Below, one piece after another: positions 724 through 54,120 of a stretch of 64,000 nt of DNA (the first letter of the stretch is position 1; each line of letters starts with the position of its first letter). Below the pieces are notes generated by a model. It made no database searches. It was not told the DNA's origin and worked only from the letters and a program-made list of their open reading frames with translations. The DNA comes from a virus (lineage: Duplodnaviria > Caudoviricetes). The position numbers and the translations under genes are program-made. The DNA is taken from IMG/VR virus record IMGVR_UViG_3300028738_000008; one strand, 5' to 3'.

Positions 724-1154
724 AAACACCAATCTGTTCCATTAAGCATTTTGAAAAACTGCTTAGACAATTCGAAAAAATGGCAAATAAGCAAATCGTT
801 GCGAACATAGTCCATGAAGAAACATACCAGCCAAAAGCAGGTACATACCTATCATTACCAGAATACCTGAGTTCAAAGGAAACTTTTAACACCGATGTAT
901 TGCACATAGCATTGTTTGATTCGTTGTTACCGAGGTTTAAGGCTGATAAGTTCAAAACAAAATCTGAATTTAAGATTAGCTACGGCGAAACAAGGTTCTT
1001 TGTGTCATATACGGTCGAAGACTCAAATCATAACAGAATGTTTATGAGCGACGAAAATTACGACATAATCGACAAATTTATTGTTTTCAGAGTATATTGT
1101 CAATATTCACAAAAAAGATTGCTGGCACGATGGAGTATCCCAATAACTTGGTAA
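720..1154 (+). CDS. hypothetical protein
   Basis: 144-aa ORF, ATGA-coupled to the upstream gene; no recognised motif. Confidence 0.6.
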   Translation: MKTPICSIKHFEKLLRQFEKMANKQIVANIVHEETYQPKAGTYLSLPEYLSSKETFNTDVLHIALFDSLLPRFKADKFKTKSEFKISYGETRFFVSYTVEDSNHNRMFMSDENYDIIDKFIVFRVYCQYSQKRLLARWSIPITW

Positions 1155-1642
1155 AAGAGTGGTTCGTATTCACAGACATTGATGGAGTACTTTCAACAAG
1201 TAAACAATATTTCATGAAAAATCTCCATCCAAAATATCAATGTTACAAATTTGATCCTGAGTGCTCAAAAATTTACAATGATATAGTCAATGTTATGAAT
1301 GCGCACATTGTACTTACCAGCGATTGGAGAGAGCAATTTACAATTGACGAAATGAATGATATTTTTCATTGGTCTGGAATTAATCATACTATATCAGATA
1401 TTACGATTTCGTTAATGGGTGCAACATATTTCATGGAACAAGAATTGGCGATTTGTAGAGCACATGAAATATTGGAGTATGTGCATCGTTTCAAGATTAA
1501 AAAATTCATCGTCATCGATGATCTCGATTTATCGCCTTGGCTGAAAAACAATTTTGTACAATGTCCCAGATACGGCGAAGGCATTAAACAAACAGGAATA
1601 AAAGAAAAGATTTTAAATAAGTTTTTAAGTAATGATATCTAA
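1130..1642 (+). CDS. HAD-family phosphatase (Swiss-Army-Knife RNA-repair-like HAD)
   Basis: Motif I FTDIDGVL, motif II VLTSDWR, motif IV IVIDDLD. ATG at 1130 preferred over the track's TTG at 1097. Confidence 0.75.
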   Translation: MEYPNNLVKEWFVFTDIDGVLSTSKQYFMKNLHPKYQCYKFDPECSKIYNDIVNVMNAHIVLTSDWREQFTIDEMNDIFHWSGINHTISDITISLMGATYFMEQELAICRAHEILEYVHRFKIKKFIVIDDLDLSPWLKNNFVQCPRYGEGIKQTGIKEKILNKFLSNDI

Positions 1643-3011
1643 ATTGAATAACATGAATGTAGATTTGAGCGTAAACAAGTTAGTTGTTTATCAGACAAAA
1701 GACAGTGAATTTAAAGGTTTTTTGTTGAAAGACAATGGCAGTTACAGTATTAAGGTAATTGAAACCACACGTGGCATTGTAAAAGTTGGCGACGTATTCG
1801 AAATGATGGAAAAGGATTTGACGAACATTGTCCAGTCTGAGTATCCCAAACTAATGGCGGTTAGCATGAAATCATGGCATTATCGTCTTGTAAAGTATGT
1901 GCTTGGGAGCAATGCTCCTACGCCGAAAACAATGCATAATGGCTGTCCTTATTTCTGGTTATTGATTTTCTCATTGATTACCTGCCCATTTGTTTTACTT
2001 GGGAGTGTTATTTCGAAAGTTTTCGGTTTTATCGGAGCAGGTATTGAATACGTAATGAATGCTTTGGTAGATCATTGGCTTGAAAATTTGAATGATTCAG
2101 AGATTTATGACTACTCGCAAAATGATGGCGACTATTATAAACCAAATGCACTTACGAAAGCCATATCAGGTAATAAATATAATGCATTTGACCGTTTCGT
2201 ATTTTTAAAATATGGTATTGATAAAGATACTAACTATGCTAAATATCGTGAACAAACGACAGTTATTTTTAACAAATGGCGTGAATGGCGTAACGAATTA
2301 AATGAAAAAGAAAGCCTATATCGTATTCAGTATCAGAAGAATTTAGCTAAGAAAAGAATTAGCGATGAAAAATGGAGAAAAAGAACTCAACCAATTAAAG
2401 ATGGTATTGCCAATGCAATGTCGAGTATTGTCGATTTCTTTACGAAAATACAAAAATCCTTTACTGGTAATAATAATCTTGTAAAAAGAACTAAAGAATT
2501 CGTTGGTTTTTTTGTTACAGGACTCATGTTAACAATAACATTAGGTATTGTGTCTGGAATTGCCGCATTAATTATTTTACTCTCAGATGTATTGTCGGGT
2601 AGTTGGGGAACAATTTTCGTGGTATTTATGTATATACTTGCAATCGTTGCCGCTGTATTCGCAGTATTTTTCTTAGCAACATTAGTAGCGGGCTTTATTG
2701 ATAAATGTAAAAGTAATAGGAATGCATGGTATTCGAAAATATTATTATCAGCAGTTTTCGCCCCTATTGTTAATATTGGTAAGTTTGTTGCATATTGCGT
2801 ATTTTATATAGTGTTTATTCCATTAAAGTTTATTATCTTTGACGTTATCTGGAAAATCGTTTGTGTAAAGATCATCGCAGGTACTTGCATTGGATTGTTT
2901 AATGTTACAATTAACTCTGGTGGTATATTTACAGAATACTTTAGAGCAAGTTACAGTGACTACTGCCCTGGAATTGAATGGATTGATACCGATGAAAAGA
3001 AAAAAATTTAA
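1632..3011 (+). CDS. multi-pass membrane protein, unknown function
   Basis: 459 aa with several long hydrophobic segments separated by a charged, helical-looking region. Confidence 0.65.
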   Translation: MISKLNNMNVDLSVNKLVVYQTKDSEFKGFLLKDNGSYSIKVIETTRGIVKVGDVFEMMEKDLTNIVQSEYPKLMAVSMKSWHYRLVKYVLGSNAPTPKTMHNGCPYFWLLIFSLITCPFVLLGSVISKVFGFIGAGIEYVMNALVDHWLENLNDSEIYDYSQNDGDYYKPNALTKAISGNKYNAFDRFVFLKYGIDKDTNYAKYREQTTVIFNKWREWRNELNEKESLYRIQYQKNLAKKRISDEKWRKRTQPIKDGIANAMSSIVDFFTKIQKSFTGNNNLVKRTKEFVGFFVTGLMLTITLGIVSGIAALIILLSDVLSGSWGTIFVVFMYILAIVAAVFAVFFLATLVAGFIDKCKSNRNAWYSKILLSAVFAPIVNIGKFVAYCVFYIVFIPLKFIIFDVIWKIVCVKIIAGTCIGLFNVTINSGGIFTEYFRASYSDYCPGIEWIDTDEKKKI

Positions 3012-3026
3012 TTAAAAATAAGAATC

Positions 3027-3614
3027 ATGTATACATTTTTAGTAGTTTCCATAGTAACAATTTTGATCTCAATATGCTTCTTCAAAGGCAATACATGGGA
3101 TAAAAGACTTTTCATCCTTGGCGTTATAGCCATCTTAACAATGGTATCATTTGTCGTAATTGACTTATCGACGAGAGACAAAAACAAGGTTAAAATAAGT
3201 TATGACACAAAGCTCGAATTAGTCAGTCTAAAATTTGGTGGCGATACAATTGACATCATTAAGAAATATGCTGTTTACGATATTTATAAAATCTATAACA
3301 AGATTATCTATAAAAAAACGTATAACACACATTTAGTGTTTATGATCAGCGGTGGCGATACAACTGTTTATTATTCGACGAACGGAAAGGATGTTTTGTC
3401 AAAAGAAATCTCAAAGGTATATTTTCGCAAAAACCCTGATAATAATGATGCCTTTTCAATCATAAAGATCGTCGAATATGACAGGAATCGAAATAGGTTT
3501 TATAATCCGTTTGCTCTTAACAGATATCTCACCCATACCGTACTTGTATTGCCAAAAGCTGAATTTGATATGATTCCAAAAAGCTTTATCAGACCTGAAA
3601 TATTCTTCAAATGA
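3027..3614 (+). CDS. membrane-anchored hypothetical protein
   Basis: Two N-terminal hydrophobic helices followed by a soluble domain. Confidence 0.6.
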   Translation: MYTFLVVSIVTILISICFFKGNTWDKRLFILGVIAILTMVSFVVIDLSTRDKNKVKISYDTKLELVSLKFGGDTIDIIKKYAVYDIYKIYNKIIYKKTYNTHLVFMISGGDTTVYYSTNGKDVLSKEISKVYFRKNPDNNDAFSIIKIVEYDRNRNRFYNPFALNRYLTHTVLVLPKAEFDMIPKSFIRPEIFFK

Positions 3615-3862
3615 AAACAAGTCTACTAAAAGTCGTCCTTTGCAAAGAAAAATTGCACTGGCACAGGATTATCGAAATCTACGGTAAATTTGACAACATT
3701 TTTGCAAGTGTTATAGCTGGCACAATTGTATCGATTTTGTTCTCTATAGGTCATTATTGCCACGTTGTTATGCATGTTTTATTTGAATCCTTCTTGTACG
3801 TATTCTATCGTAGCATGTTTAAGAGTAATTTAATAAAACTCTCAGCAACCTGTAAGTTTTAA
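3611..3862 (+). CDS. small hypothetical protein (one hydrophobic segment)
   Basis: ATGA-coupled to the upstream gene; 83 aa. Confidence 0.45.
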   Translation: MKTSLLKVVLCKEKLHWHRIIEIYGKFDNIFASVIAGTIVSILFSIGHYCHVVMHVLFESFLYVFYRSMFKSNLIKLSATCKF

Positions 3863-3894
3863 GAAATGCACATTGTACATGATTTATAAATTAA

Positions 3895-3929
3895 GAAACG
3901 CTGATGGTTATAGTGATCATCAGCGTTTC
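3895..3929. terminator. stem-loop, probable intrinsic terminator
   Basis: gaaacgctgatg (3895-3906) / catcagcgtttc (3918-3929): perfect 12-bp inverted repeat followed by a short T run. Confidence 0.55.
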
Positions 3930-3948
3930 CTTTAAAATACAAAATATA

Positions 3949-4179
3949 ATGAAATCAATACTTATTTATATAGCACTGCTATTTGTAGAATCAATAGCTG
4001 TCGCAGGTGTCATATTCGCAATCTATTTCTACTATGTAAAAACGAAATACAATATATCGATTGAGTATATCGATATGGTCTACGTTGTATTCTCAATAAA
4101 AATAATAACAACCAATTTCATTGCATTTATAAGTGCTGTAAATGATATTGAACCTGAACAAGTTGATACAAAACAATAA
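3949..4179 (+). CDS. small two-helix membrane protein
   Basis: ATG at 3949 (MKSILIY) lies after the hairpin; the track's extension to 3904 runs through the hairpin. Confidence 0.55.
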   Translation: MKSILIYIALLFVESIAVAGVIFAIYFYYVKTKYNISIEYIDMVYVVFSIKIITTNFIAFISAVNDIEPEQVDTKQ

Positions 4180-4183
4180 ATAT

Positions 4184-4399
4184 ATGTTATACCACAAGGA
4201 CAATTCAAGAATCACCGTCAAGTATATCGACGCTGACACCGAAGAAACAATCTTCGAGATTCCTAACAGGAATCACACAAATATTGGAGAGTTATTCTCC
4301 GATTTCTATGCTAGTTCAATAATGCAGAATGAGATCAAGGACGGTAACTTTCCCAAAAAAATAATTATATTAGCAGCTATTGAATTAACACACGAATAA
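4184..4399 (+). CDS. hypothetical protein
   Basis: In-frame ATG at 4184 (MLYHKD) just after the upstream stop; track start is 4142. Confidence 0.55.
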   Translation: MLYHKDNSRITVKYIDADTEETIFEIPNRNHTNIGELFSDFYASSIMQNEIKDGNFPKKIIILAAIELTHE

Positions 4400-4400
4400 T

Positions 4401-4715
4401 ATGATAAACGAAGAAAATTATAGCCGATTTGTCTTTTTTAAGAATGAACATATGCGTGACGGCGGCAAATTTCCATTAGAAACTGCTTTAACTGAATTAG
4501 TGAAAATATGTATTATGACTAAAGAGTATAAGCTTTATTATGGTGGTGGCTGTGAATATGAGACAATAAATCCCATAAGCGTATATGATGTTGTCTGCTA
4601 TTTTGGAATAACAGGAGACCCCTACTTTATGGTGTGTATGGATAATGAGCAAGGTGATTGCTGCGACTTATATCGTTGCAATGCTAACTGCAAGATTGAG
4701 AATAAATTAATATAA
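4401..4715 (+). CDS. Cys-containing hypothetical protein
   Basis: 104-aa ORF tightly packed in the operon. Confidence 0.55.
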   Translation: MINEENYSRFVFFKNEHMRDGGKFPLETALTELVKICIMTKEYKLYYGGGCEYETINPISVYDVVCYFGITGDPYFMVCMDNEQGDCCDLYRCNANCKIENKLI

Positions 4716-4723
4716 TAAATCAT

Positions 4724-5053
4724 ATGAGAACAAAATTAATAACTGGTCACGTGGAGCATTATTCTCCAGAAGACCCTAGCAAAGAGCTTGGTGTCTTTAT
4801 CAACTATAACATCGATGGAACTAATTTAAAATTCGAAGCCTCTATTCCATACATTTTTAAAAACGGAAATTATATCTTCTTTGAAACATTGATGGTGATG
4901 TTTGACTACTTCCTAAATGGCAACGTTTATTTGAAACGAGCCTATTTGCCAGAAGATGAATTCGACGCATTGTATGACGCTAAATTCATTGACGGCTTAT
5001 TTGTCGATAAGCTAGACTGGATAGACGGTTCAAGTGCCGAAAATCCGAACTAA
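4724..5053 (+). CDS. hypothetical protein
   Basis: 109-aa ORF ending immediately before a terminator. Confidence 0.6.
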   Translation: MRTKLITGHVEHYSPEDPSKELGVFINYNIDGTNLKFEASIPYIFKNGNYIFFETLMVMFDYFLNGNVYLKRAYLPEDEFDALYDAKFIDGLFVDKLDWIDGSSAENPN

Positions 5054-12979: not shown

Positions 12980-12988
12980 TATAAATAC
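12980..12988 (-). promoter_or_regulatory. putative late promoter
   Basis: GTATTTATA on the - strand, 12 nt before ATG 12967. Confidence 0.55.
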
Positions 12989-19458: not shown

Positions 19459-19476
19459 TTTTATATAATTTTATAA

Positions 19477-19483
19477 TAAATAC
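19477..19483 (-). promoter_or_regulatory. putative late promoter
   Basis: GTATTTA(TTATAAAA) on the - strand, before ATG 19458. Confidence 0.5.
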
Positions 19484-25628: not shown

Positions 25629-25644
25629 AAATTCTATTTTTTAA

Positions 25645-25651
25645 TAAATAC
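25645..25651 (-). promoter_or_regulatory. putative late promoter
   Basis: GTATTTA(TTAAAAAA) before ATG 25628. Confidence 0.5.
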
Positions 25652-30852: not shown

Positions 30853-30890
30853 AGTTTTGCTTTTAAATAAATACATAAAAAAGCAAAACT
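30853..30890 (-). promoter_or_regulatory. late promoter in the loop of a 12-bp hairpin abutting the GTG start
   Basis: agttttgctttt (30853-30864) / aaaagcaaaact (30879-30890); taaatac at 30868-30874. Confidence 0.6.
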
Positions 30891-31818: not shown

Positions 31819-31836
31819 AAATTATTCCTTTTTTAA

Positions 31837-31843
31837 TAAATAC
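31837..31843 (-). promoter_or_regulatory. putative late promoter
   Basis: GTATTTA(TTAAAAAA) before ATG 31818. Confidence 0.5.
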
Positions 31844-34701: not shown

Positions 34702-34710
34702 TATAAATAC
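34702..34710 (-). promoter_or_regulatory. putative late promoter
   Basis: GTATTTATA(TAAAAAA), 14 nt before the gp25 ATG. Confidence 0.6.
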
Positions 34711-39248: not shown

Positions 39249-40043
39249 TTAAAATCCCTGAATTAGAGACTCGCCGTATTTGATTCCGTCGAATCCGTAT
39301 TTTTTAGCCTTTTCAGCTATTGCCTTACATTTTAAATTAAATTCGCTAATATTATTTTCTTTAGAAATTGCATTAAAATTCACGTGCGGAAACCATATAT
39401 TTGCCAGAACATCTATAGGATTTTGGCTATTCTTATAAGAAATACCCATTTTATCCGTATCCATGATATTATCAAATTCAATTTCATATTTTTTCATACC
39501 TTCTTTAGGCTGCAACGAAAAGAAATTACCGTTACTGGAATTATTTTTAAAATCATCCCTTCTATATCCAATTAGCTTTACAGCATTTCCAGATTCTTCA
39601 CCATTTTCATTTTCATCTACGCCTGACTCAATACTATCCAAGAAATTATTTGGTATAGTATTGCTCTCAGCCTCTTTTTGCTGCTCATAATCATATATGT
39701 CTTGAACCTTATTTAAGGCTCTGCAAGCGTTTTTATGATCGAGATCAACAATTATAGCTCTTATAGTCTTACGTCCCTCATACAGTGCTTTTACAAGCCT
39801 ATGATGACCATCTAAGACGAATAGTTCACTGTTAATCCATATTGGTTTTTGTTCGTCATCAATATCAGCGTTATCAACCTCATGTGAAAATGTAATTCCC
39901 TGCAAGACTCTCAATATAGCTGGATTAATATCTATAACTCTGCTATTAACGCCATCGGCATTGAGTTTATCAACGACAATCTCAAAAGGTGCATTTACTT
40001 GTGGTAAATAAGCTGGTCTATGCTGCATATCTATTGTACTCAT
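39249..40043 (-). CDS. ParB/Srx N-terminal-like domain protein with unknown C-terminal domain
   Basis: PIWINSELFVLDGHHRLVKAL; C-terminal KAKKYGFDGIKY. Confidence 0.6.
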   Translation of the reverse strand: MSTIDMQHRPAYLPQVNAPFEIVVDKLNADGVNSRVIDINPAILRVLQGITFSHEVDNADIDDEQKPIWINSELFVLDGHHRLVKALYEGRKTIRAIIVDLDHKNACRALNKVQDIYDYEQQKEAESNTIPNNFLDSIESGVDENENGEESGNAVKLIGYRRDDFKNNSSNGNFFSLQPKEGMKKYEIEFDNIMDTDKMGISYKNSQNPIDVLANIWFPHVNFNAISKENNISEFNLKCKAIAEKAKKYGFDGIKYGESLIQGF

Positions 40044-40061: not shown

Positions 40062-43000
40062 TTAAATTTTAAATTCAATCTCTTTAACAGAACCTATAAG
40101 AAATAATGGTTTTCTGTAAGTTATCCAATTTTTTAAATTATTAGACATTTTTGCTGTTGCTCCATTTGACTTATTAACACCAATAGTTATATGTCTTTTG
40201 TCATTAATCGAACCAAATCCAGAAACGCCTACAGCCATAGTGTTATCGTCCATAGCATAACTATCGACCTTCAATCTTACGGTGTATCCTAGATATTTCT
40301 TATAAAAATCATCTATTTCACCAAAATTAATTGTCATATGATCGCCCACAAATTCAAATCCCTCTGGAAGCATACTAGCAAAGCTATCGTATAATTTCTT
40401 TTTAGATCTATCATCCAGCACAATAGCTGAATATGCTATAAATTTTTTACTCATAGGTTTAGTTTGTTCGGGTCTGTTTAGTACTTCATCAATTGGTTTA
40501 TCTTGCGGCGTTACGTCCTTGTAAAAATCGAGGTAGTATTTGTATTGAGGACTTTTTGATTTAATTCTTCTAAGATTTGCCATGATTGAGCCATCATTAG
40601 CATTTTCATCATTAAGGATTTCAACCTGTGCATCGCCAAGTCCAAAAGAGCTAGTGTTCCCGACTCTATGTAATAATGAGAATCTGTTTAAATTTTCTTC
40701 CGAATATAGGGCATAATTGTTGTCAAACATCCCAAGTGCCTCTGACATTCCACCATGAACAAACCATGAGTTCTTACCAGCCACATATAAATCGCCATTA
40801 GGATCGCCAATAGCTCTTACGTCCGCATCGAAATTATCCAATGATTTTGGATTTTTATAAATTGGTATACCCTTACGTTCAGTATCAACAACATATGCGA
40901 CAGGTTTTTCCAATTGGGTCTGTTTGTGTGCCTTAAAATCTCTCTCAAATTCTTTCTCTGGGTCTGGAATGCCAAATCTTTTTTCAGCATACTTATCACC
41001 AACGCCTTCATCCGTTACTGGCAACAATTTGTTTTTATCAAATGGCTTATTTAAGTCTATTCCGTCGCCGTCATAATATTGCTCATAGTATTTAAATTGT
41101 GGATTTTTTGTCGATAATTTATCAAACAATTTATCAATATCTGCACGTGCTGCTCTATTAACTCTCATATAGCCTTCGCTTGAATCGCTTAGTCCGAATG
41201 AATTTAGCTCACCCATTCTGTGCAATAAAACATATTTATCATAGTTTCTATATAATTCATAATTGCTATCTGCAAAAAATAATGATTGACCTATATTGCC
41301 GTGTACAAAATTACCATTTTTTTGTGCTACATAAAGATTACCGTCAGCATCAGACACTGCTCTAACATTATACTCAAAATTTGCAAGAGATTTCGGGTTT
41401 TTATAGATCGGTACTTTTTCTATCTTGTCATGACCATCAGCACTATAATCATAAATTGTTGAGTCAACAAACGCAACAGGTGTATTAGTCTGCGCTAACT
41501 GATTAGCATTATATTTTCTGTTGAACTCGCCCTCTGGGTCTGGAATGCCAAATCTTTTTTCGGCATACTTGTCAGCAACGCCCTCGTTTGCAACACTATC
41601 GTCTTTAATTGAGGTATCTTTGTCAATAGAAACATTTGTAAAGAGATTACTATAATATTTAAACTGAGGATTCTTTTTCATCAGATTCTTAAATATTGTT
41701 AAGCCTTCAATACGTCTTTCCTTATATGCATTCATGTAGCTGAAACTAGTATCGCCTAAGCCGAATGAATTAGTATTATCAACCCTATTGAGCAATAAAA
41801 ACTTATCCATGTGATCATAAATGTCATTTCCGCCGATTCTCAACGCTTTTGCCATATTCTCATGAACAAATGATCCATTTTTCTGTGCGACGTATATATT
41901 TCCGTCATAATCGGCAATTGCTCTTGTAGCTGGTTCAAAGTTACTTAAGGACTTTGGATTTTTATATATTCCGACATTCTCACGAGTGTTGTAAACATGA
42001 TTAGTGCTTCTAACATATGCAGCAGGCTGTTCTAATGTTGATTGTTTATGAGCATTGTATTTACTCTCATATTCGTTATCGGAATTTGGAATACCGAATT
42101 TCTTTTCAGCATATTTATCGCCGACGCCTTCCTGTTCAAGAGATTCAGATACCTGATGTAAATTAAAATTTTCACTTGTGGCATCTGGAATCGCTTCGCC
42201 AGAATTAGGATCAGTCGAGTTGCCAGCATTGAGATAATTAATAATATCCTCACGATTGTTTTTCAGCTTGTCAGTATATATTTTTAATAAAATTTCCTTA
42301 AACTTGTTCTTAATTTGTTCGCCTTTAAATCCTAGATTCATAAGGTCATTACCATTAACAGGTAAATCGGCATTTGACTTAGGGTATTTACCAGACAATA
42401 ATTCATCACATGCTATTTTTACAGGCATTGGAATTATATCCGATTTTAAAGACTCTGGATAAACGGCATACATGTTATAAGCAACTGATCTGGCTTTATA
42501 TATGTTGGCTGCGTCGTCCTTTGAGTCGAATGCTAGCTTCAATGCTTTTATTTCCTTATAGGTGTTGATATCGCCACGCAGTTTTGTTTTAAAAAATTCG
42601 TCAGGTGTATCGATTGTTTTGTCTAACAATAAGTAAATAAACTCGCCCATTGTTTTAGCATTTCTAAACAATTCAGCCTCAGAGTTAAAATTAACAACTG
42701 GATTAGTTCCAAATAATTGCTTATAAATGCCTGTTTCTACTAAAAGATTTGCACCGACTAAATGGTCACCCTTTTGAACTATCTTATCGAACTCTGTTAG
42801 AATCCTTTCAGACGGAATCTCTCTTATTTTCACAGCACTTCCCTGAATAGCTTTCATTGTTTCAGGTTCAATTGTGAACCCGAATCTTGATGCCATTTGA
42901 ACTGCTCTAAGCATTCTTAAAGGGTCTTCGGTAAAAGCTGATGGATCAACCATCCTAATTATCTTATTTTTTATATCGTTAACTCCTCCGAAAGGATCGA

Positions 43001-43931
43001 TTATATTTCCTTCGATATCGGTAGCAATTGCGTTAATCGTCAAGTCACGTCTTTTCAAGTCGTCTTCAATTGGCAACGTATGATCGGATTTTGTTTCAAT
43101 ACCTTTATGACCACCAGCACCTGTCGCTGTATCTGTTCTTGGAATTGCCACGTCTATATCCTCGGTGCTTCCTTTTGGTTTAAATTTCAATACTCCAAAA
43201 GACTTTCCTACAAGGTTTACCTGACCGTATTTACCCAAAATTTGTTCAAGCGTATCCATTGGGACGCCTGTAATCATTATGTCAAGGTCTTTAGATTCTT
43301 TGCCTAGATATTTATCACGCACAGCACCGCCGACAGAGTATATTTTACCACCCAGCTTCTCGATTTCGGCTGTAAAGGGAATCTGATCTAAGCTATAGAT
43401 TTCGGCTTCATCCAAATGATTAAAGTCGTCAGCAGTTCTCGTGTCAACAGGAACATTATTATAATGCTTTTTAATAAAATCGTCTATAGATTTTTTTGAA
43501 TAGCCAAATATTTCGCCGATTTCTCTGGCTTCCTCTGGCGACTTATCAGAAGCATATCCGCCATGACTGTTCATTATGTCACGAAGTCTCAAAGCCTTTT
43601 CTTTATTCGTATAAATAATATAAGACTTCTGGTCGCCTCTCTGAATTGGGAGAACATTGATATTATTATCGTTCAATTTCTTAATAATGTCTCTATTCAT
43701 GTCAACGATCAAGCCGACTTCCCTTTTACCATTAATAAGAGTATTCAAACTACCGTTTAGATCATAAGCGTCGCTAGCATCTATTTCTTCATTAACAATA
43801 GATTTTATAGTAAGATTACTGATATCGCCCTGATTACAAGCGGCTGACTTACCATTAAGTTTACCTAATTTACATTTGTCTTTTACTTCAACAGTTGAAG
43901 CACCCTTCATCCACGATAGTATTCTTTTCAT
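40062..43931 (-). CDS. cca: multidomain tRNA nucleotidyltransferase (CCA-adding, class II) + three repeats + 2H phosphoesterase
   Basis: VGGAVRD..LG..SKDLD, RRDLTINAI, EDPLR; three repeats beginning EGV.DKYAEK.FGIP; C-terminal HMTI and HITI (two HxT motifs). Confidence 0.85.
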   Translation of the reverse strand: MKRILSWMKGASTVEVKDKCKLGKLNGKSAACNQGDISNLTIKSIVNEEIDASDAYDLNGSLNTLINGKREVGLIVDMNRDIIKKLNDNNINVLPIQRGDQKSYIIYTNKEKALRLRDIMNSHGGYASDKSPEEAREIGEIFGYSKKSIDDFIKKHYNNVPVDTRTADDFNHLDEAEIYSLDQIPFTAEIEKLGGKIYSVGGAVRDKYLGKESKDLDIMITGVPMDTLEQILGKYGQVNLVGKSFGVLKFKPKGSTEDIDVAIPRTDTATGAGGHKGIETKSDHTLPIEDDLKRRDLTINAIATDIEGNIIDPFGGVNDIKNKIIRMVDPSAFTEDPLRMLRAVQMASRFGFTIEPETMKAIQGSAVKIREIPSERILTEFDKIVQKGDHLVGANLLVETGIYKQLFGTNPVVNFNSEAELFRNAKTMGEFIYLLLDKTIDTPDEFFKTKLRGDINTYKEIKALKLAFDSKDDAANIYKARSVAYNMYAVYPESLKSDIIPMPVKIACDELLSGKYPKSNADLPVNGNDLMNLGFKGEQIKNKFKEILLKIYTDKLKNNREDIINYLNAGNSTDPNSGEAIPDATSENFNLHQVSESLEQEGVGDKYAEKKFGIPNSDNEYESKYNAHKQSTLEQPAAYVRSTNHVYNTRENVGIYKNPKSLSNFEPATRAIADYDGNIYVAQKNGSFVHENMAKALRIGGNDIYDHMDKFLLLNRVDNTNSFGLGDTSFSYMNAYKERRIEGLTIFKNLMKKNPQFKYYSNLFTNVSIDKDTSIKDDSVANEGVADKYAEKRFGIPDPEGEFNRKYNANQLAQTNTPVAFVDSTIYDYSADGHDKIEKVPIYKNPKSLANFEYNVRAVSDADGNLYVAQKNGNFVHGNIGQSLFFADSNYELYRNYDKYVLLHRMGELNSFGLSDSSEGYMRVNRAARADIDKLFDKLSTKNPQFKYYEQYYDGDGIDLNKPFDKNKLLPVTDEGVGDKYAEKRFGIPDPEKEFERDFKAHKQTQLEKPVAYVVDTERKGIPIYKNPKSLDNFDADVRAIGDPNGDLYVAGKNSWFVHGGMSEALGMFDNNYALYSEENLNRFSLLHRVGNTSSFGLGDAQVEILNDENANDGSIMANLRRIKSKSPQYKYYLDFYKDVTPQDKPIDEVLNRPEQTKPMSKKFIAYSAIVLDDRSKKKLYDSFASMLPEGFEFVGDHMTINFGEIDDFYKKYLGYTVRLKVDSYAMDDNTMAVGVSGFGSINDKRHITIGVNKSNGATAKMSNNLKNWITYRKPLFLIGSVKEIEFKI
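40490..42132 (-). repeat. three diverged tandem repeats of about 180-190 aa within the cca gene
   Basis: Repeat starts near 42132, 41585 and 41009; shared YKNPKSL.NF, RA..D.DG..YVA, FVH, SFGL.D and PQ.KYY. Confidence 0.8.
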
Positions 43932-45749: not shown

Positions 45750-46451
45750 TTAATTATAATTTTTAAAGCATATTGTTATGTATTCAATCAAATTTGGAAC
45801 TGTGTCCAAATGTTTCATGCCCTCAATGGTATACCAACCAAAAGTCGAATGTTCATCATTCAGTTTAATTTTGTCAATATCGCCAGTATATCTGCTTGCA
45901 AATATGTGTTCACAATTAATTGTGTTATCATATATTCTTTCAAGCGTTAATCTTTTTATAAAATTGTCGAGAGCTATACCAGTTTCTTCGAATGTTTCCC
46001 TTTTGCATGCCTGCTCAGGAGTTTCGTCATCTTCAATTTTTCCACCTGCCAATCCATATTTATTAGCTGCCCAACAATTATTCCCACGTTTAAGCAATAG
46101 AAATTCATTGTTTTCGTTAACAATGATTGCCAACGCATTTTCCTGTTTTTGAAAATCATCACTTTCATTTAATGCACCTATTTCAATTTTTCTTGCCGAT
46201 CCCAATGCTGTATCAACGAAATTTTTCATATCTTCGCCGCCAGCTAATAGATACTGAACATCGTTTGCGCCCATGCTTGCTAAATCATGTTTCAGTCTTT
46301 TTAATGCCTGATATGTTAATGATCCATTTTTCAGAATGAACTTAGCTCTACGAATTCCATCACTGTCAGGATATCTTGTAATAGCAGCACTTATAACGTT
46401 TAATACATTCTTTGGCACTGCAAAATTTTTACCGTATAATTCGCTATTCAT
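45750..46451 (-). CDS. Nudix hydrolase with N-terminal extension
   Basis: Intact Nudix box GKIEDDETPEQACKRETFEETGI. Confidence 0.9.
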   Translation of the reverse strand: MNSELYGKNFAVPKNVLNVISAAITRYPDSDGIRRAKFILKNGSLTYQALKRLKHDLASMGANDVQYLLAGGEDMKNFVDTALGSARKIEIGALNESDDFQKQENALAIIVNENNEFLLLKRGNNCWAANKYGLAGGKIEDDETPEQACKRETFEETGIALDNFIKRLTLERIYDNTINCEHIFASRYTGDIDKIKLNDEHSTFGWYTIEGMKHLDTVPNLIEYITICFKNYN

Positions 46452-47050
46452 TATTTACTAACCTCTATTAGATTCTTCAATTTATTTTTTGAGCCATTGT
46501 CTAGCTTGTTAATCAGACCAGCTATCTTTGTAACACTTTTGTCCGTAATATCCCTATCATTAGATTTTGCTGATAGAAAATTATCAATCTTTTTATCGAC
46601 GATGGTATCTTCATCTACAATAGACTCGTCCACACTTGAAGGCTTATCGCCGAATTTTTTTACAATCTCTTTAGCATACACCTCGAAGTACTTAACGACA
46701 TCCTTTGATATGGTTTCCTTTTCGGTATAAATTCTAAAATCGTTTTTCAAGCTATTAGGGTTCTTATAGTAATGTTTCATAAGTTCCTCATAGAATTTAC
46801 GGAGAATTTCAAGCGTATCTGTTAAGTCTTTATTCTTCTCGTCAGAGCCTTCGCCCTCAAAAAATGGTAGCATGACAGAACCAAAATATCCCATCATGCT
46901 ATCACCGAAAGGTTGATGCCCTACAGCCATATTATAGTCAGTAATTTTTTTAGAAACTGTGCTCATATTTGGGCCAGTTTTTGGTACATTATCGCTGCCA
47001 ATAAGACCGCCGTCAGCATCTATAACTTCATTTATAAGAATAACTTTCAT
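46451..47050 (-). CDS. hypothetical late protein
   Basis: 199 aa; first gene after the late motif at 47070. Confidence 0.6.
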   Translation of the reverse strand: MKVILINEVIDADGGLIGSDNVPKTGPNMSTVSKKITDYNMAVGHQPFGDSMMGYFGSVMLPFFEGEGSDEKNKDLTDTLEILRKFYEELMKHYYKNPNSLKNDFRIYTEKETISKDVVKYFEVYAKEIVKKFGDKPSSVDESIVDEDTIVDKKIDNFLSAKSNDRDITDKSVTKIAGLINKLDNGSKNKLKNLIEVSK

Positions 47051-47054
47051 GATA

Positions 47055-47084
47055 ATTCGAGTAATTTTATATAAATACTCGAAT
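47055..47084 (-). promoter_or_regulatory. late promoter embedded in a hairpin between polB and the late operon
   Basis: attcgagta (47055-47063) / tactcgaat (47076-47084); tataaatac at 47070-47078; ATG at 47050. Confidence 0.65.
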
Positions 47085-50848: not shown

Positions 50849-51817
50849 TCATAATTCGTCGTCGCCTTCGTCACTCACAATAGATGAATGAGATTTTGTT
50901 ATCATCACGCTAAATGGCTTAACTGACTCAACTGAATTCCATTTACCTATTGATGGTGCTTTAAACTTATCGAATGAAATAATATCGTCACACTTGCTTT
51001 TTTCAGGTTTATTAAATTCCTCAAATGGAATTTCCAACTGTGTACCATCATAAGATTCCCTGTATTTACGATACTCATAAGCATTCTTATTAACGATCTT
51101 ATTACCATCACGGTCAGTCATTGAATAGCCTCTGCTGAACATTGCTTCAAGTTGTTTATCAGCTATTTTATCCTGATAAACTTTTGGTAAGTCCATTCCA
51201 AAATACTCTGTTGTTATGATAGTTTTACATGGTACACATTCGCAACAAGGTGTATATCCCAAAATTCCATCATGTTCACAGTCATCCAGCCTAGGATTTT
51301 CGCAAGATACAACTAAATCACGATATTTGGAAGGTAATTTATCAGCCATTTGATATTTTTTCATCTTTATAATCGGAAACTTCAATGGTACAAGCGATTC
51401 GCATATTGCTCCATATGACTTATAAATGTTTTTAATATCCTTAAGGTATGAAATCGCATCGTCGTTTGACACATATCCCACCTGAATTTCCTCGACTCCA
51501 CGAATACCTTGGCTAAATATCATTGCCATAATCCAAATAGGAACTTGCTTAAAATATAGGCTTCCCTCATTGGCGTCAACATGTGCCGTTAAAACATACT
51601 CAATGTGATTTAACTTGGAAGGGTAATCCTTGTTAAATTCGTTCGAGAATAATTTATACAGCAACTCAATACGGTTCTTTTCCAGCTGTGCCTTATGCCT
51701 GTTATTCTCAATTGTCACATAAATCGGCGTAACGGTATTACCGTCCATAAGATTTTTCCATACAAGATAAGTAGAATCAAGTCCACCTGAAAACAAAATA
51801 GCAACATTCTTACTCAT
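50849..51817 (-). CDS. queC: QueC-like PP-loop ATPase (7-cyano-7-deazaguanine synthase family)
   Basis: ILFSGGLDST PP-loop; C-terminal SCENP...PCCECVPC zinc cluster. Confidence 0.75.
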   Translation of the reverse strand: MSKNVAILFSGGLDSTYLVWKNLMDGNTVTPIYVTIENNRHKAQLEKNRIELLYKLFSNEFNKDYPSKLNHIEYVLTAHVDANEGSLYFKQVPIWIMAMIFSQGIRGVEEIQVGYVSNDDAISYLKDIKNIYKSYGAICESLVPLKFPIIKMKKYQMADKLPSKYRDLVVSCENPRLDDCEHDGILGYTPCCECVPCKTIITTEYFGMDLPKVYQDKIADKQLEAMFSRGYSMTDRDGNKIVNKNAYEYRKYRESYDGTQLEIPFEEFNKPEKSKCDDIISFDKFKAPSIGKWNSVESVKPFSVMITKSHSSIVSDEGDDEL

Positions 51818-54111: not shown

Positions 54112-54120
54112 TATAAATAC
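54112..54120 (-). promoter_or_regulatory. putative late promoter
   Basis: GTATTTATA(TAAAA), 16 nt before ATG 54095. Confidence 0.6.

Follow-up and report, generated by a model that had tools for sequence, protein, structure and literature searches.

The 64,000-nucleotide stretch of DNA analyzed here (the window) is part of a 112,823-bp IMG/VR virus record (IMGVR_UViG_3300028738_000008; Duplodnaviria, Caudoviricetes) with a CheckV completeness of 34%. We addressed a gene on its minus strand that is predicted to encode a CCA-type tRNA nucleotidyltransferase (NTase) and a 2H phosphoesterase in one protein. The gene is a single uninterrupted open reading frame (ORF) of 1289 codons with no internal stop, lying 9 nt from the stop of the preceding gene and 18 nt from the start of the next. 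Its product combined five domain types, in the order leader, NleE-like domain, NTase, three R repeats, and C-terminal 2H domain. A preliminary description made from the sequence alone had presented the protein as a fusion of the NTase and the 2H domain, and had pointed to a HAD gene elsewhere in the window; the architecture, the type of the 2H domain, and the HAD gene held, but approximately 55% of the protein, namely aa 1-185 (leader and NleE-like domain) and aa 601-1150 (the three repeats), had been left unconsidered. The features of the gene are as follows.

40062..43931, minus strand: whole ORF, 1289 aa (P0001)
43782..43931, minus strand: N-a, strongly conserved leader/junction motif of ~45 aa (within aa 1-50) that contains two Cys, has CNQGDI at its core, and closes with [ILV]-x-E
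43422..43781, minus strand: N-b, NleE-like fold domain (aa ~51-170)
42225..43373, minus strand: predicted class II CCA-type tRNA NTase with head, neck, body, and tail (aa ~187-569; Pfam, PHROG, PDB, and NCBIfam)
41586..42131, minus strand: repeat R1 (aa 601-782)
41010..41585, minus strand: repeat R2 (aa 783-974)
40482..41009, minus strand: repeat R3 (aa 975-1150)
40065..40454, minus strand: predicted compact 2H phosphoesterase of the CNPase/Trl1 cyclic phosphodiesterase (CPD) type (aa ~1160-1289), with an I-D-E junction ahead of it at aa 1146-1148
40329..40340, minus strand: first HxT motif, HMTI (aa 1198-1201)
40182..40193, minus strand: second HxT motif, HITI (aa 1247-1250)

Because the identical protein was present on 24 contigs in a public protein collection (there read from M8, with 1282 aa; longest contig, 237.6 kb), and because the DNA of the gene was complete (all sampled words) in 13 peat-metagenome runs, with at least 91% of it present in six more, the ORF is genuine and belongs to an uncultured peat jumbo phage. 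An assembly artefact or a gene-fusion error was ruled out by these two observations together with syntenic orthologs of the same architecture.

Profile and motif matches identified aa ~187-569 as a complete class II CCA-type NTase. The claim that this enzyme is intact was borne out, as GGAVRD (aa 201), DLD (aa 215), PRTD (aa 264), RRD (aa 294), and EDPLR (aa 335) were all located, and Pfam, PHROG, and PDB agreed on the assignment: PolyA_pol (PF01743) matched at 89.1 bits (cut-off 23) and PolyA_pol_RNAbd (PF12627) at 51.6 bits (cut-off 22), PHROG 2244, annotated as tRNA nucleotidyltransferase, matched with an E value of 2e-64, and the nearest solved structure by PDB sequence match was the CCA-adding enzyme of B. 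stearothermophilus (1miv, 3e-27), with which motifs A (GGAVRD...DLD), B (RRD), and D (EDPLR) lined up. Among the NCBIfam models, only the CCA model NF009814 aligned over its full extent (positions 13-392 of 396, E 1.3e-49), and there was a hint of PF13735 on the tail domain; the PcnB and A-adding models covered only the head and neck. The earlier remark that no HD domain was visible was also sound, since the Pfam scan of the protein found none and the match to NF008137 was confined to positions 2-206 of 409.

The C-terminal domain is, on the basis of its motifs and a predicted structure, a CPD-type 2H phosphoesterase of very small size (~125 aa). HMTI and HITI lay precisely where they had been reported, and because conservation of their columns (H/M/T and H/T) reached 90% or more among 64 aligned homologues of this domain (hereafter C domain), the motifs are not due to chance. 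An AlphaFold (AF2) model of the domain reached a predicted local distance difference test score of 93.9, and its top structural matches were all 2H enzymes: the CNPase catalytic domain (score 13.4; root-mean-square deviation of 2.1 Å over 124 residues), a fungal tRNA-ligase kinase-CPD (11.2), RICH (10.8), Acb1 (7.4), and LigT (6.4). Both hallmarks of the 2H superfamily, two H-x-T motifs and the 2H fold, were thereby found, the fold being taken from the model. A PDB-sequence profile search with the C-domain alignment returned no significant match, and a search of IMG/VR with the single C domain of the window as the query returned no close relative.

We next considered how far the NTase and the 2H domain occur together. 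An exhaustive search with aa 590-1289, that is, without the NTase, found 838 cluster representatives, of which the best 150 were mapped for domains. In these 150, R occurred alone or in up to five copies, C occurred alone (122-150 aa) or fused, and domain order and copy number varied, and yet 37 of the 63 C-domain proteins also carried an NTase, on either side of C. In IMG/VR, 147 contigs encoded a C domain, and 80 loci fetched from them were surveyed: the NTase and C shared one frame in 36, and an NTase-bearing ORF lay at most 2.1 kb upstream of C on the same strand in 31, so that the two were fused or adjacent in 67 of 80. The combination that the preliminary description had suggested searching for is thus recurrent, and the fused or adjacent loci argue for the NTase and the 2H domain being a functional pair. 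In four loci (L039:7309-7980, L019:5111-5485, L020:7398-7772, and L063:7312-7983), a GIY-YIG/NUMOD3 homing endonuclease was found between the NTase ORF and a stand-alone 2H gene, which suggests that in several relatives a fused gene was secondarily split through homing endonuclease insertion. A search of 185,579 species genomes yielded only seven loci, all in metagenome-assembled genomes (MAGs) or a single-amplified genome, and the family is therefore essentially phage-borne. One of the seven lies on a contig filed under a 'Candidatus Paceibacterota' MAG (JBAZIW010000001.1, locus L087; 362,763 bp, equal in length to the IMG/VR jumbo-phage record behind L005) that bears the same 2H gene; this contig probably represents a phage whose genome was binned with a bacterial MAG.

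The HAD gene that had been mentioned tentatively at 1130 proved to be a genuine phosphatase gene of the RNA-repair type, and a HAD domain was fused or adjacent to the family protein in relatives.

1097..1642, plus strand: HAD_SAK_2 phosphatase gene, 181 aa (PF18143, E 7.5e-20, 72.2 bits, cut-off 27.5)

PF18143 carries the description 'HAD domain in Swiss Army Knife RNA repair proteins'. Both HAD_SAK_1 and HAD_PNKP were found fused to family proteins in relatives, which are T4-like phages of 310-365 kb, and among five complete genomes of relatives (320-365 kb), HAD_SAK_2 was present in three and RNA ligases in four. The gene at 1097-1642 is a candidate for clearing the monophosphate after the 2H step. 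The plus-strand ORFs near it (1-723, 720-1154, and 1632-5053) had no Pfam match.

Taken together, we proposed that this T4-like jumbo phage uses the multidomain product of the gene to maintain tRNA 3' ends, an explanation that we consider rather probable. First, the 2H domain would open the 2',3'-cyclic phosphate that metal-independent RNases leave on tRNA acceptor ends, probably yielding a 2'-phosphate, as with CNPase and Trl1-CPD; 2H enzymes acting on RNA cyclic phosphates are known to leave a 2'-phosphate (PMC9503650). Second, a separate phosphatase would remove the monophosphate, with HAD_SAK_2, the fused HAD domains of the relatives, or a host enzyme as candidates. Third, the NTase would restore C-C-A, and it would likewise complete the tRNAs that the phage itself encodes, which mostly lack CCA. 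The three R repeats, like the NleE-like domain, would be accessory modules. HEPN-type toxins are a further example of nucleases that act on tRNA acceptor ends. Plausible targets would be the ends left by such acceptor-end nucleases, for example CdiA-CT EC869 (PMC9071432), and cleavage of the tRNA tail is a genuine immune strategy, as in Cas12a3 (PMC12851939) and CdiA-CT EC869.

Several points weigh against this proposal. A 2'-phosphate product alone is no clean end for the NTase, and metal-dependent cuts of the Cas12a3 type require no 2H step. The NTase scored 169.3 bits against the CCA model NF009814, short of its equivalog cut-off of 290, and sequence does not reliably separate CCA-adding from A-adding enzymes or poly(A) polymerases within class II. 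The C domain of the window itself scored 19.2 bits against Pfam tRNA_lig_CPD (PF08302), below the cut-off of 23 that was passed by the homologous domains of P0008 (24.0 bits), P0011 (25.2 bits), and P0157 (23.3 bits). No NTase lay nearby in 13 of the 80 IMG/VR loci, six of which had short flanks and seven of which had ~8 kb upstream. Finally, neither an RNA ligase (PF09414) nor Tpt1/KptA (PF01885) was found in the 112.8-kb fragment, which at 34% completeness is uninformative for the whole phage.

The tRNA genes of the relatives bear on another explanation, in which the NTase mainly adds CCA de novo to CCA-less phage tRNAs, the 2H domain trims or heals intermediates or is incidental, and no host defence is involved. 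Each of the five complete relatives carried 36-55 tRNA genes, an encoded CCA was absent from 77 of the 85 tRNA genes (91%) inspected in two relatives (L083-L086; records G004 and G001), and in the four complete relatives that were searched the multidomain protein was the only gene of the PolyA_pol family, all of which would suit such housekeeping. However, standard tRNA 3' processing yields a 3'-OH, which leaves the conserved 2H partner unexplained; hosts with CCA-less tRNA genes already possess an essential CCA enzyme; and the relatives place the NTase-2H pair among conflict-type domains (ART-PolyVal, Acb1-type 2H, and Nudix). We regard housekeeping alone as unlikely. It overlaps with the preferred explanation and the two are not mutually exclusive, as repair of damaged tRNAs and maturation of the phage's own tRNAs are overlapping readings, inseparable by computation. 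Neither the window nor the 112.8-kb fragment, itself 34% complete, yielded a tRNA gene. In each of the two relatives inspected for encoded CCA, ARAGORN reported one tRNA with a CUA anticodon ('Pyl', amber-suppressor-like).

The R repeats are three tandem copies of ~185 aa with a mutual identity of 45%. Invariant or near-invariant residues in R3 were E975, G976, D979, N1027, P1028, R1039, G1046, H1059, R1089, and F1096, and across 125 R copies P and H were invariant, while E, G, D, N, L, R, G, R, F, and P were at least 90% conserved. A Pfam scan of these 125 copies gave no consistent family, a PDB-sequence profile search with the R alignment gave no match, and an ESM Atlas feature search gave no usable match. 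From its conservation pattern, R is a conserved uncharacterised domain with a catalytic-looking, invariant His/Arg/Arg set. A possible divergent stand-alone R was observed outside the window (G000:C1:101896-102222, minus strand), with a weak match (28% identity over 118 aa, E 6e-4).

At the N terminus, the structure of N-a was predicted with low confidence, and the motif closed with [ILVM]-x-E in 29 of 31 aligned copies. In relatives it was also found internally, ahead of other domains; the 112.8-kb fragment contained a single copy. Matches of the NleE hidden Markov model to the window's own N-b sequence were weak, and the nearest AFDB neighbours were small proteins annotated 'hemocin immunity', 30-33% identical; an ESM Atlas feature search with the N region gave no usable match. 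Compared with the cysteine methyltransferase NleE/OspZ (PDB 4r29; PMC4239114), N-b lacks the first 80 residues of NleE. The domain may be a methyltransferase or a binding module.

Replication genes lay upstream of the CCA/2H gene and baseplate genes downstream, and syntenic orthologs on 328-kb and 312-kb contigs showed the order SNF2 helicase, PolB, x, Nudix, three small genes, CCA/2H gene, and gp25-like baseplate genes. The two orthologs differed in domains: one (P0002) had gained ART-PolyVal, and the other had a HAD_SAK_1 gene two genes downstream. In the window, the Nudix hydrolase gene (45750-46451, minus strand) belongs to the same co-directional block as the CCA/2H gene; its product has an N-terminal extension of ~100 aa, and the Nudix part also matched a PHROG with a Nudix-portal protein fusion. 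The gene directly downstream of the CCA/2H gene (39249-40043, minus strand, 264 aa) encodes a DGHHR motif of the ParB-like nuclease type and had weak matches to ParB-like partition PHROGs; polyvalent proteins, too, often carry this type of domain. A QueC-like PP-loop protein (50849-51817, minus strand; weak Pfam QueC match) lay between the SNF2 helicase and PolB.

The 8-mer GTATTTAT was over-represented in the window (20 matches vs. 7.2 expected), and eight minus-strand genes, baseplate/tail genes among them, had a copy 13-20 nt ahead of the start codon.

47071..47078, minus strand: GTATTTAT, 20 nt upstream of the ORF 46451-47050, with which the co-directional block of the CCA/2H gene begins
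34703-34710, 31836-31843, 30867-30874, 25644-25651, 19476-19483, 12981-12988, and 54113-54120, all minus strand: other GTATTTAT sites

GTATTTAT may act as a promoter of the phage or mark translation starts; a sigma-70 promoter scan gave no more sites than chance would (83 vs. 82 expected). The earlier assignment of the gene to a late operon was supported only in part: the gene block shares GTATTTAT with baseplate/tail genes, but the gene itself lies between replication genes and baseplate genes, and GTATTTAT also precedes one gene within the replication block.

The junctions of the protein bear on whether it is packaged. In 33 of 42 multidomain relatives, the 30 residues that precede the C domain contain an [ILV]-x-E motif, the T4 gp21 cleavage consensus, where 42% would be expected to do so (binomial p 1.5e-6), and a T4 gp21-type prohead protease was present in all five complete relatives. 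These observations hint at a processed, head-packaged cargo. No gp21-type protease (PF03420) was found in the 112.8-kb fragment, of which the 34% completeness makes this uninformative for the whole phage, and no MuF or portal fusion was seen. The description of the protein as one chain may lapse if it is cleaved at these junctions. It is conceivable, but in our view quite unlikely, that the product is a capsid-packaged polyprotein, cut by the gp21-type protease at [ILV]-x-E after N-a and before the 2H domain and injected with the DNA, in which R would be a new phosphate-removing His/Arg/Arg enzyme and the NleE-like domain a Hen1-like protective methyltransferase or a nuclease inhibitor. If so, R would remove whichever phosphate (2' or 3') remains after the 2H step, and a full tRNA-tail repair kit would be present ahead of any phage gene expression.

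The additional domains of the relatives were informative on whether the 2H domain acts independently of the NTase. Among 117 unassigned segments of relatives, ART-PolyVal was found in 17 and a second 2H domain of the Acb1/2_5_RNA_ligase2 type in 11, and Nudix, GNAT, HAD_SAK_1, HAD_PNKP, and ankyrin domains were also observed. Because the relatives with a second, Acb1-type 2H domain retained the CPD-type one as well, the two types are not redundant. As independent effectors, the 2H domain would degrade host nucleotide signals (cyclic oligonucleotides or 2'-5' oligoadenylate-like molecules) or be a USB1-like 3' exoribonuclease, with no link to the NTase, an explanation that we judged very unlikely; in particular, the signal-degrading (Acb1-like) version is made less likely by the CPD-type affinity of the domain, in both structure and Pfam, and by the separate Acb1-type 2H domain kept beside it in relatives. 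Lastly, that the NTase adds poly(A) or other tails to mark host or phage RNAs, with the 2H domain readying their 3' ends, appeared extremely improbable. In favour of this explanation, PcnB models and E. coli poly(A) polymerase structures fit the head and neck nearly as closely as those of CCA enzymes; against it, the full-length alignment, tail included, was to the CCA model only (NF009814, with the PF13735 hint) and the association with tRNA-rich phages favours tRNA as the substrate.

The proposed tRNA 3'-end maintenance protein was compared with known systems. The closest in logic is the E. coli-type Cca (class II NTase plus HD; NF008137), which likewise combines a CCA NTase and a cyclic-phosphate-opening domain in one chain, to heal and then rebuild. 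The activities of the HD domain of E. coli Cca, which supplies the healing step, were reportedly described by Yakunin et al. in 2004. The phage protein differs in that it has no HD domain and would use an unrelated, metal-independent 2H domain instead, which is not expected to remove the monophosphate, and in that its NTase and 2H domain are 550 aa of repeats apart inside a 1289-aa protein. In contrast to the CPD of the fungal/plant tRNA ligase Trl1 (PF08302) and to vertebrate CNPase (~210 aa), the phage domain is short (~125 aa; 49 aa separate its HxT motifs), and its partner is an NTase rather than a ligase or a kinase. The phage anti-CBASS 2H nuclease Acb1 (PF23474; PDB 7t26) is a more distant structural neighbour that recurs as the extra domain of relatives. 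Stand-alone phage CCA-adding enzymes, which a jumbo-phage survey proposed to restore CCA (PMC7824862), have a homologous NTase (PHROG 2244, 2e-64), but they are single-function proteins of ~400 aa, whereas the NTase of the window sits with 2H, NleE-like, and R domains.

In overall build, the family resembles the polyvalent proteins (Iyer et al. 2017, PMC5512222), which are large phage proteins of strung effector domains with shuffling and duplication. Its relatives carry ART-PolyVal, GNAT, Nudix, and Acb1-type 2H domains, and because they add ART-PolyVal, Acb1-type 2H, Nudix, and HAD domains, we assigned the family, on domain content, to the polyvalent type. The protein of the window differs from that type in having no ART-PolyVal domain in a Pfam scan. 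The polyvalent-protein paper (PMC5512222) includes no CCA-adding enzyme ('CCA' occurs 0 times), and, as it noted, its 2H versions were never associated with RNA repair enzymes. Our literature search, outside which Burroughs and Aravind 2016 fell, found no paper on a CCA NTase joined to a 2H domain or on this family. Cca-type repair enzymes and polyvalent proteins are thus known kinds, and what is new here is the NTase-2H variant of repair and the uncharacterised R domain.

Phages are known to counter tRNA cutting by repairing the anticodon loop (T4 PNK and RNA ligase) and by supplying replacement tRNAs. Cutting of tRNA is increasingly recognised as bacterial immunity, which now includes the 3' tail (Cas12a3, PMC12851939). 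If the proposed function is true, these phages would have a dedicated repair route for the tRNA acceptor end, in which a minimal 2H domain takes the place of the HD domain of cellular Cca. The family is widespread, with 838 cluster representatives and 147 IMG/VR contigs and almost none in cellular genomes, and it makes testable the smallest 2H enzyme scaffold (~125 aa), a new R domain, and the travel of repair enzymes in virions.

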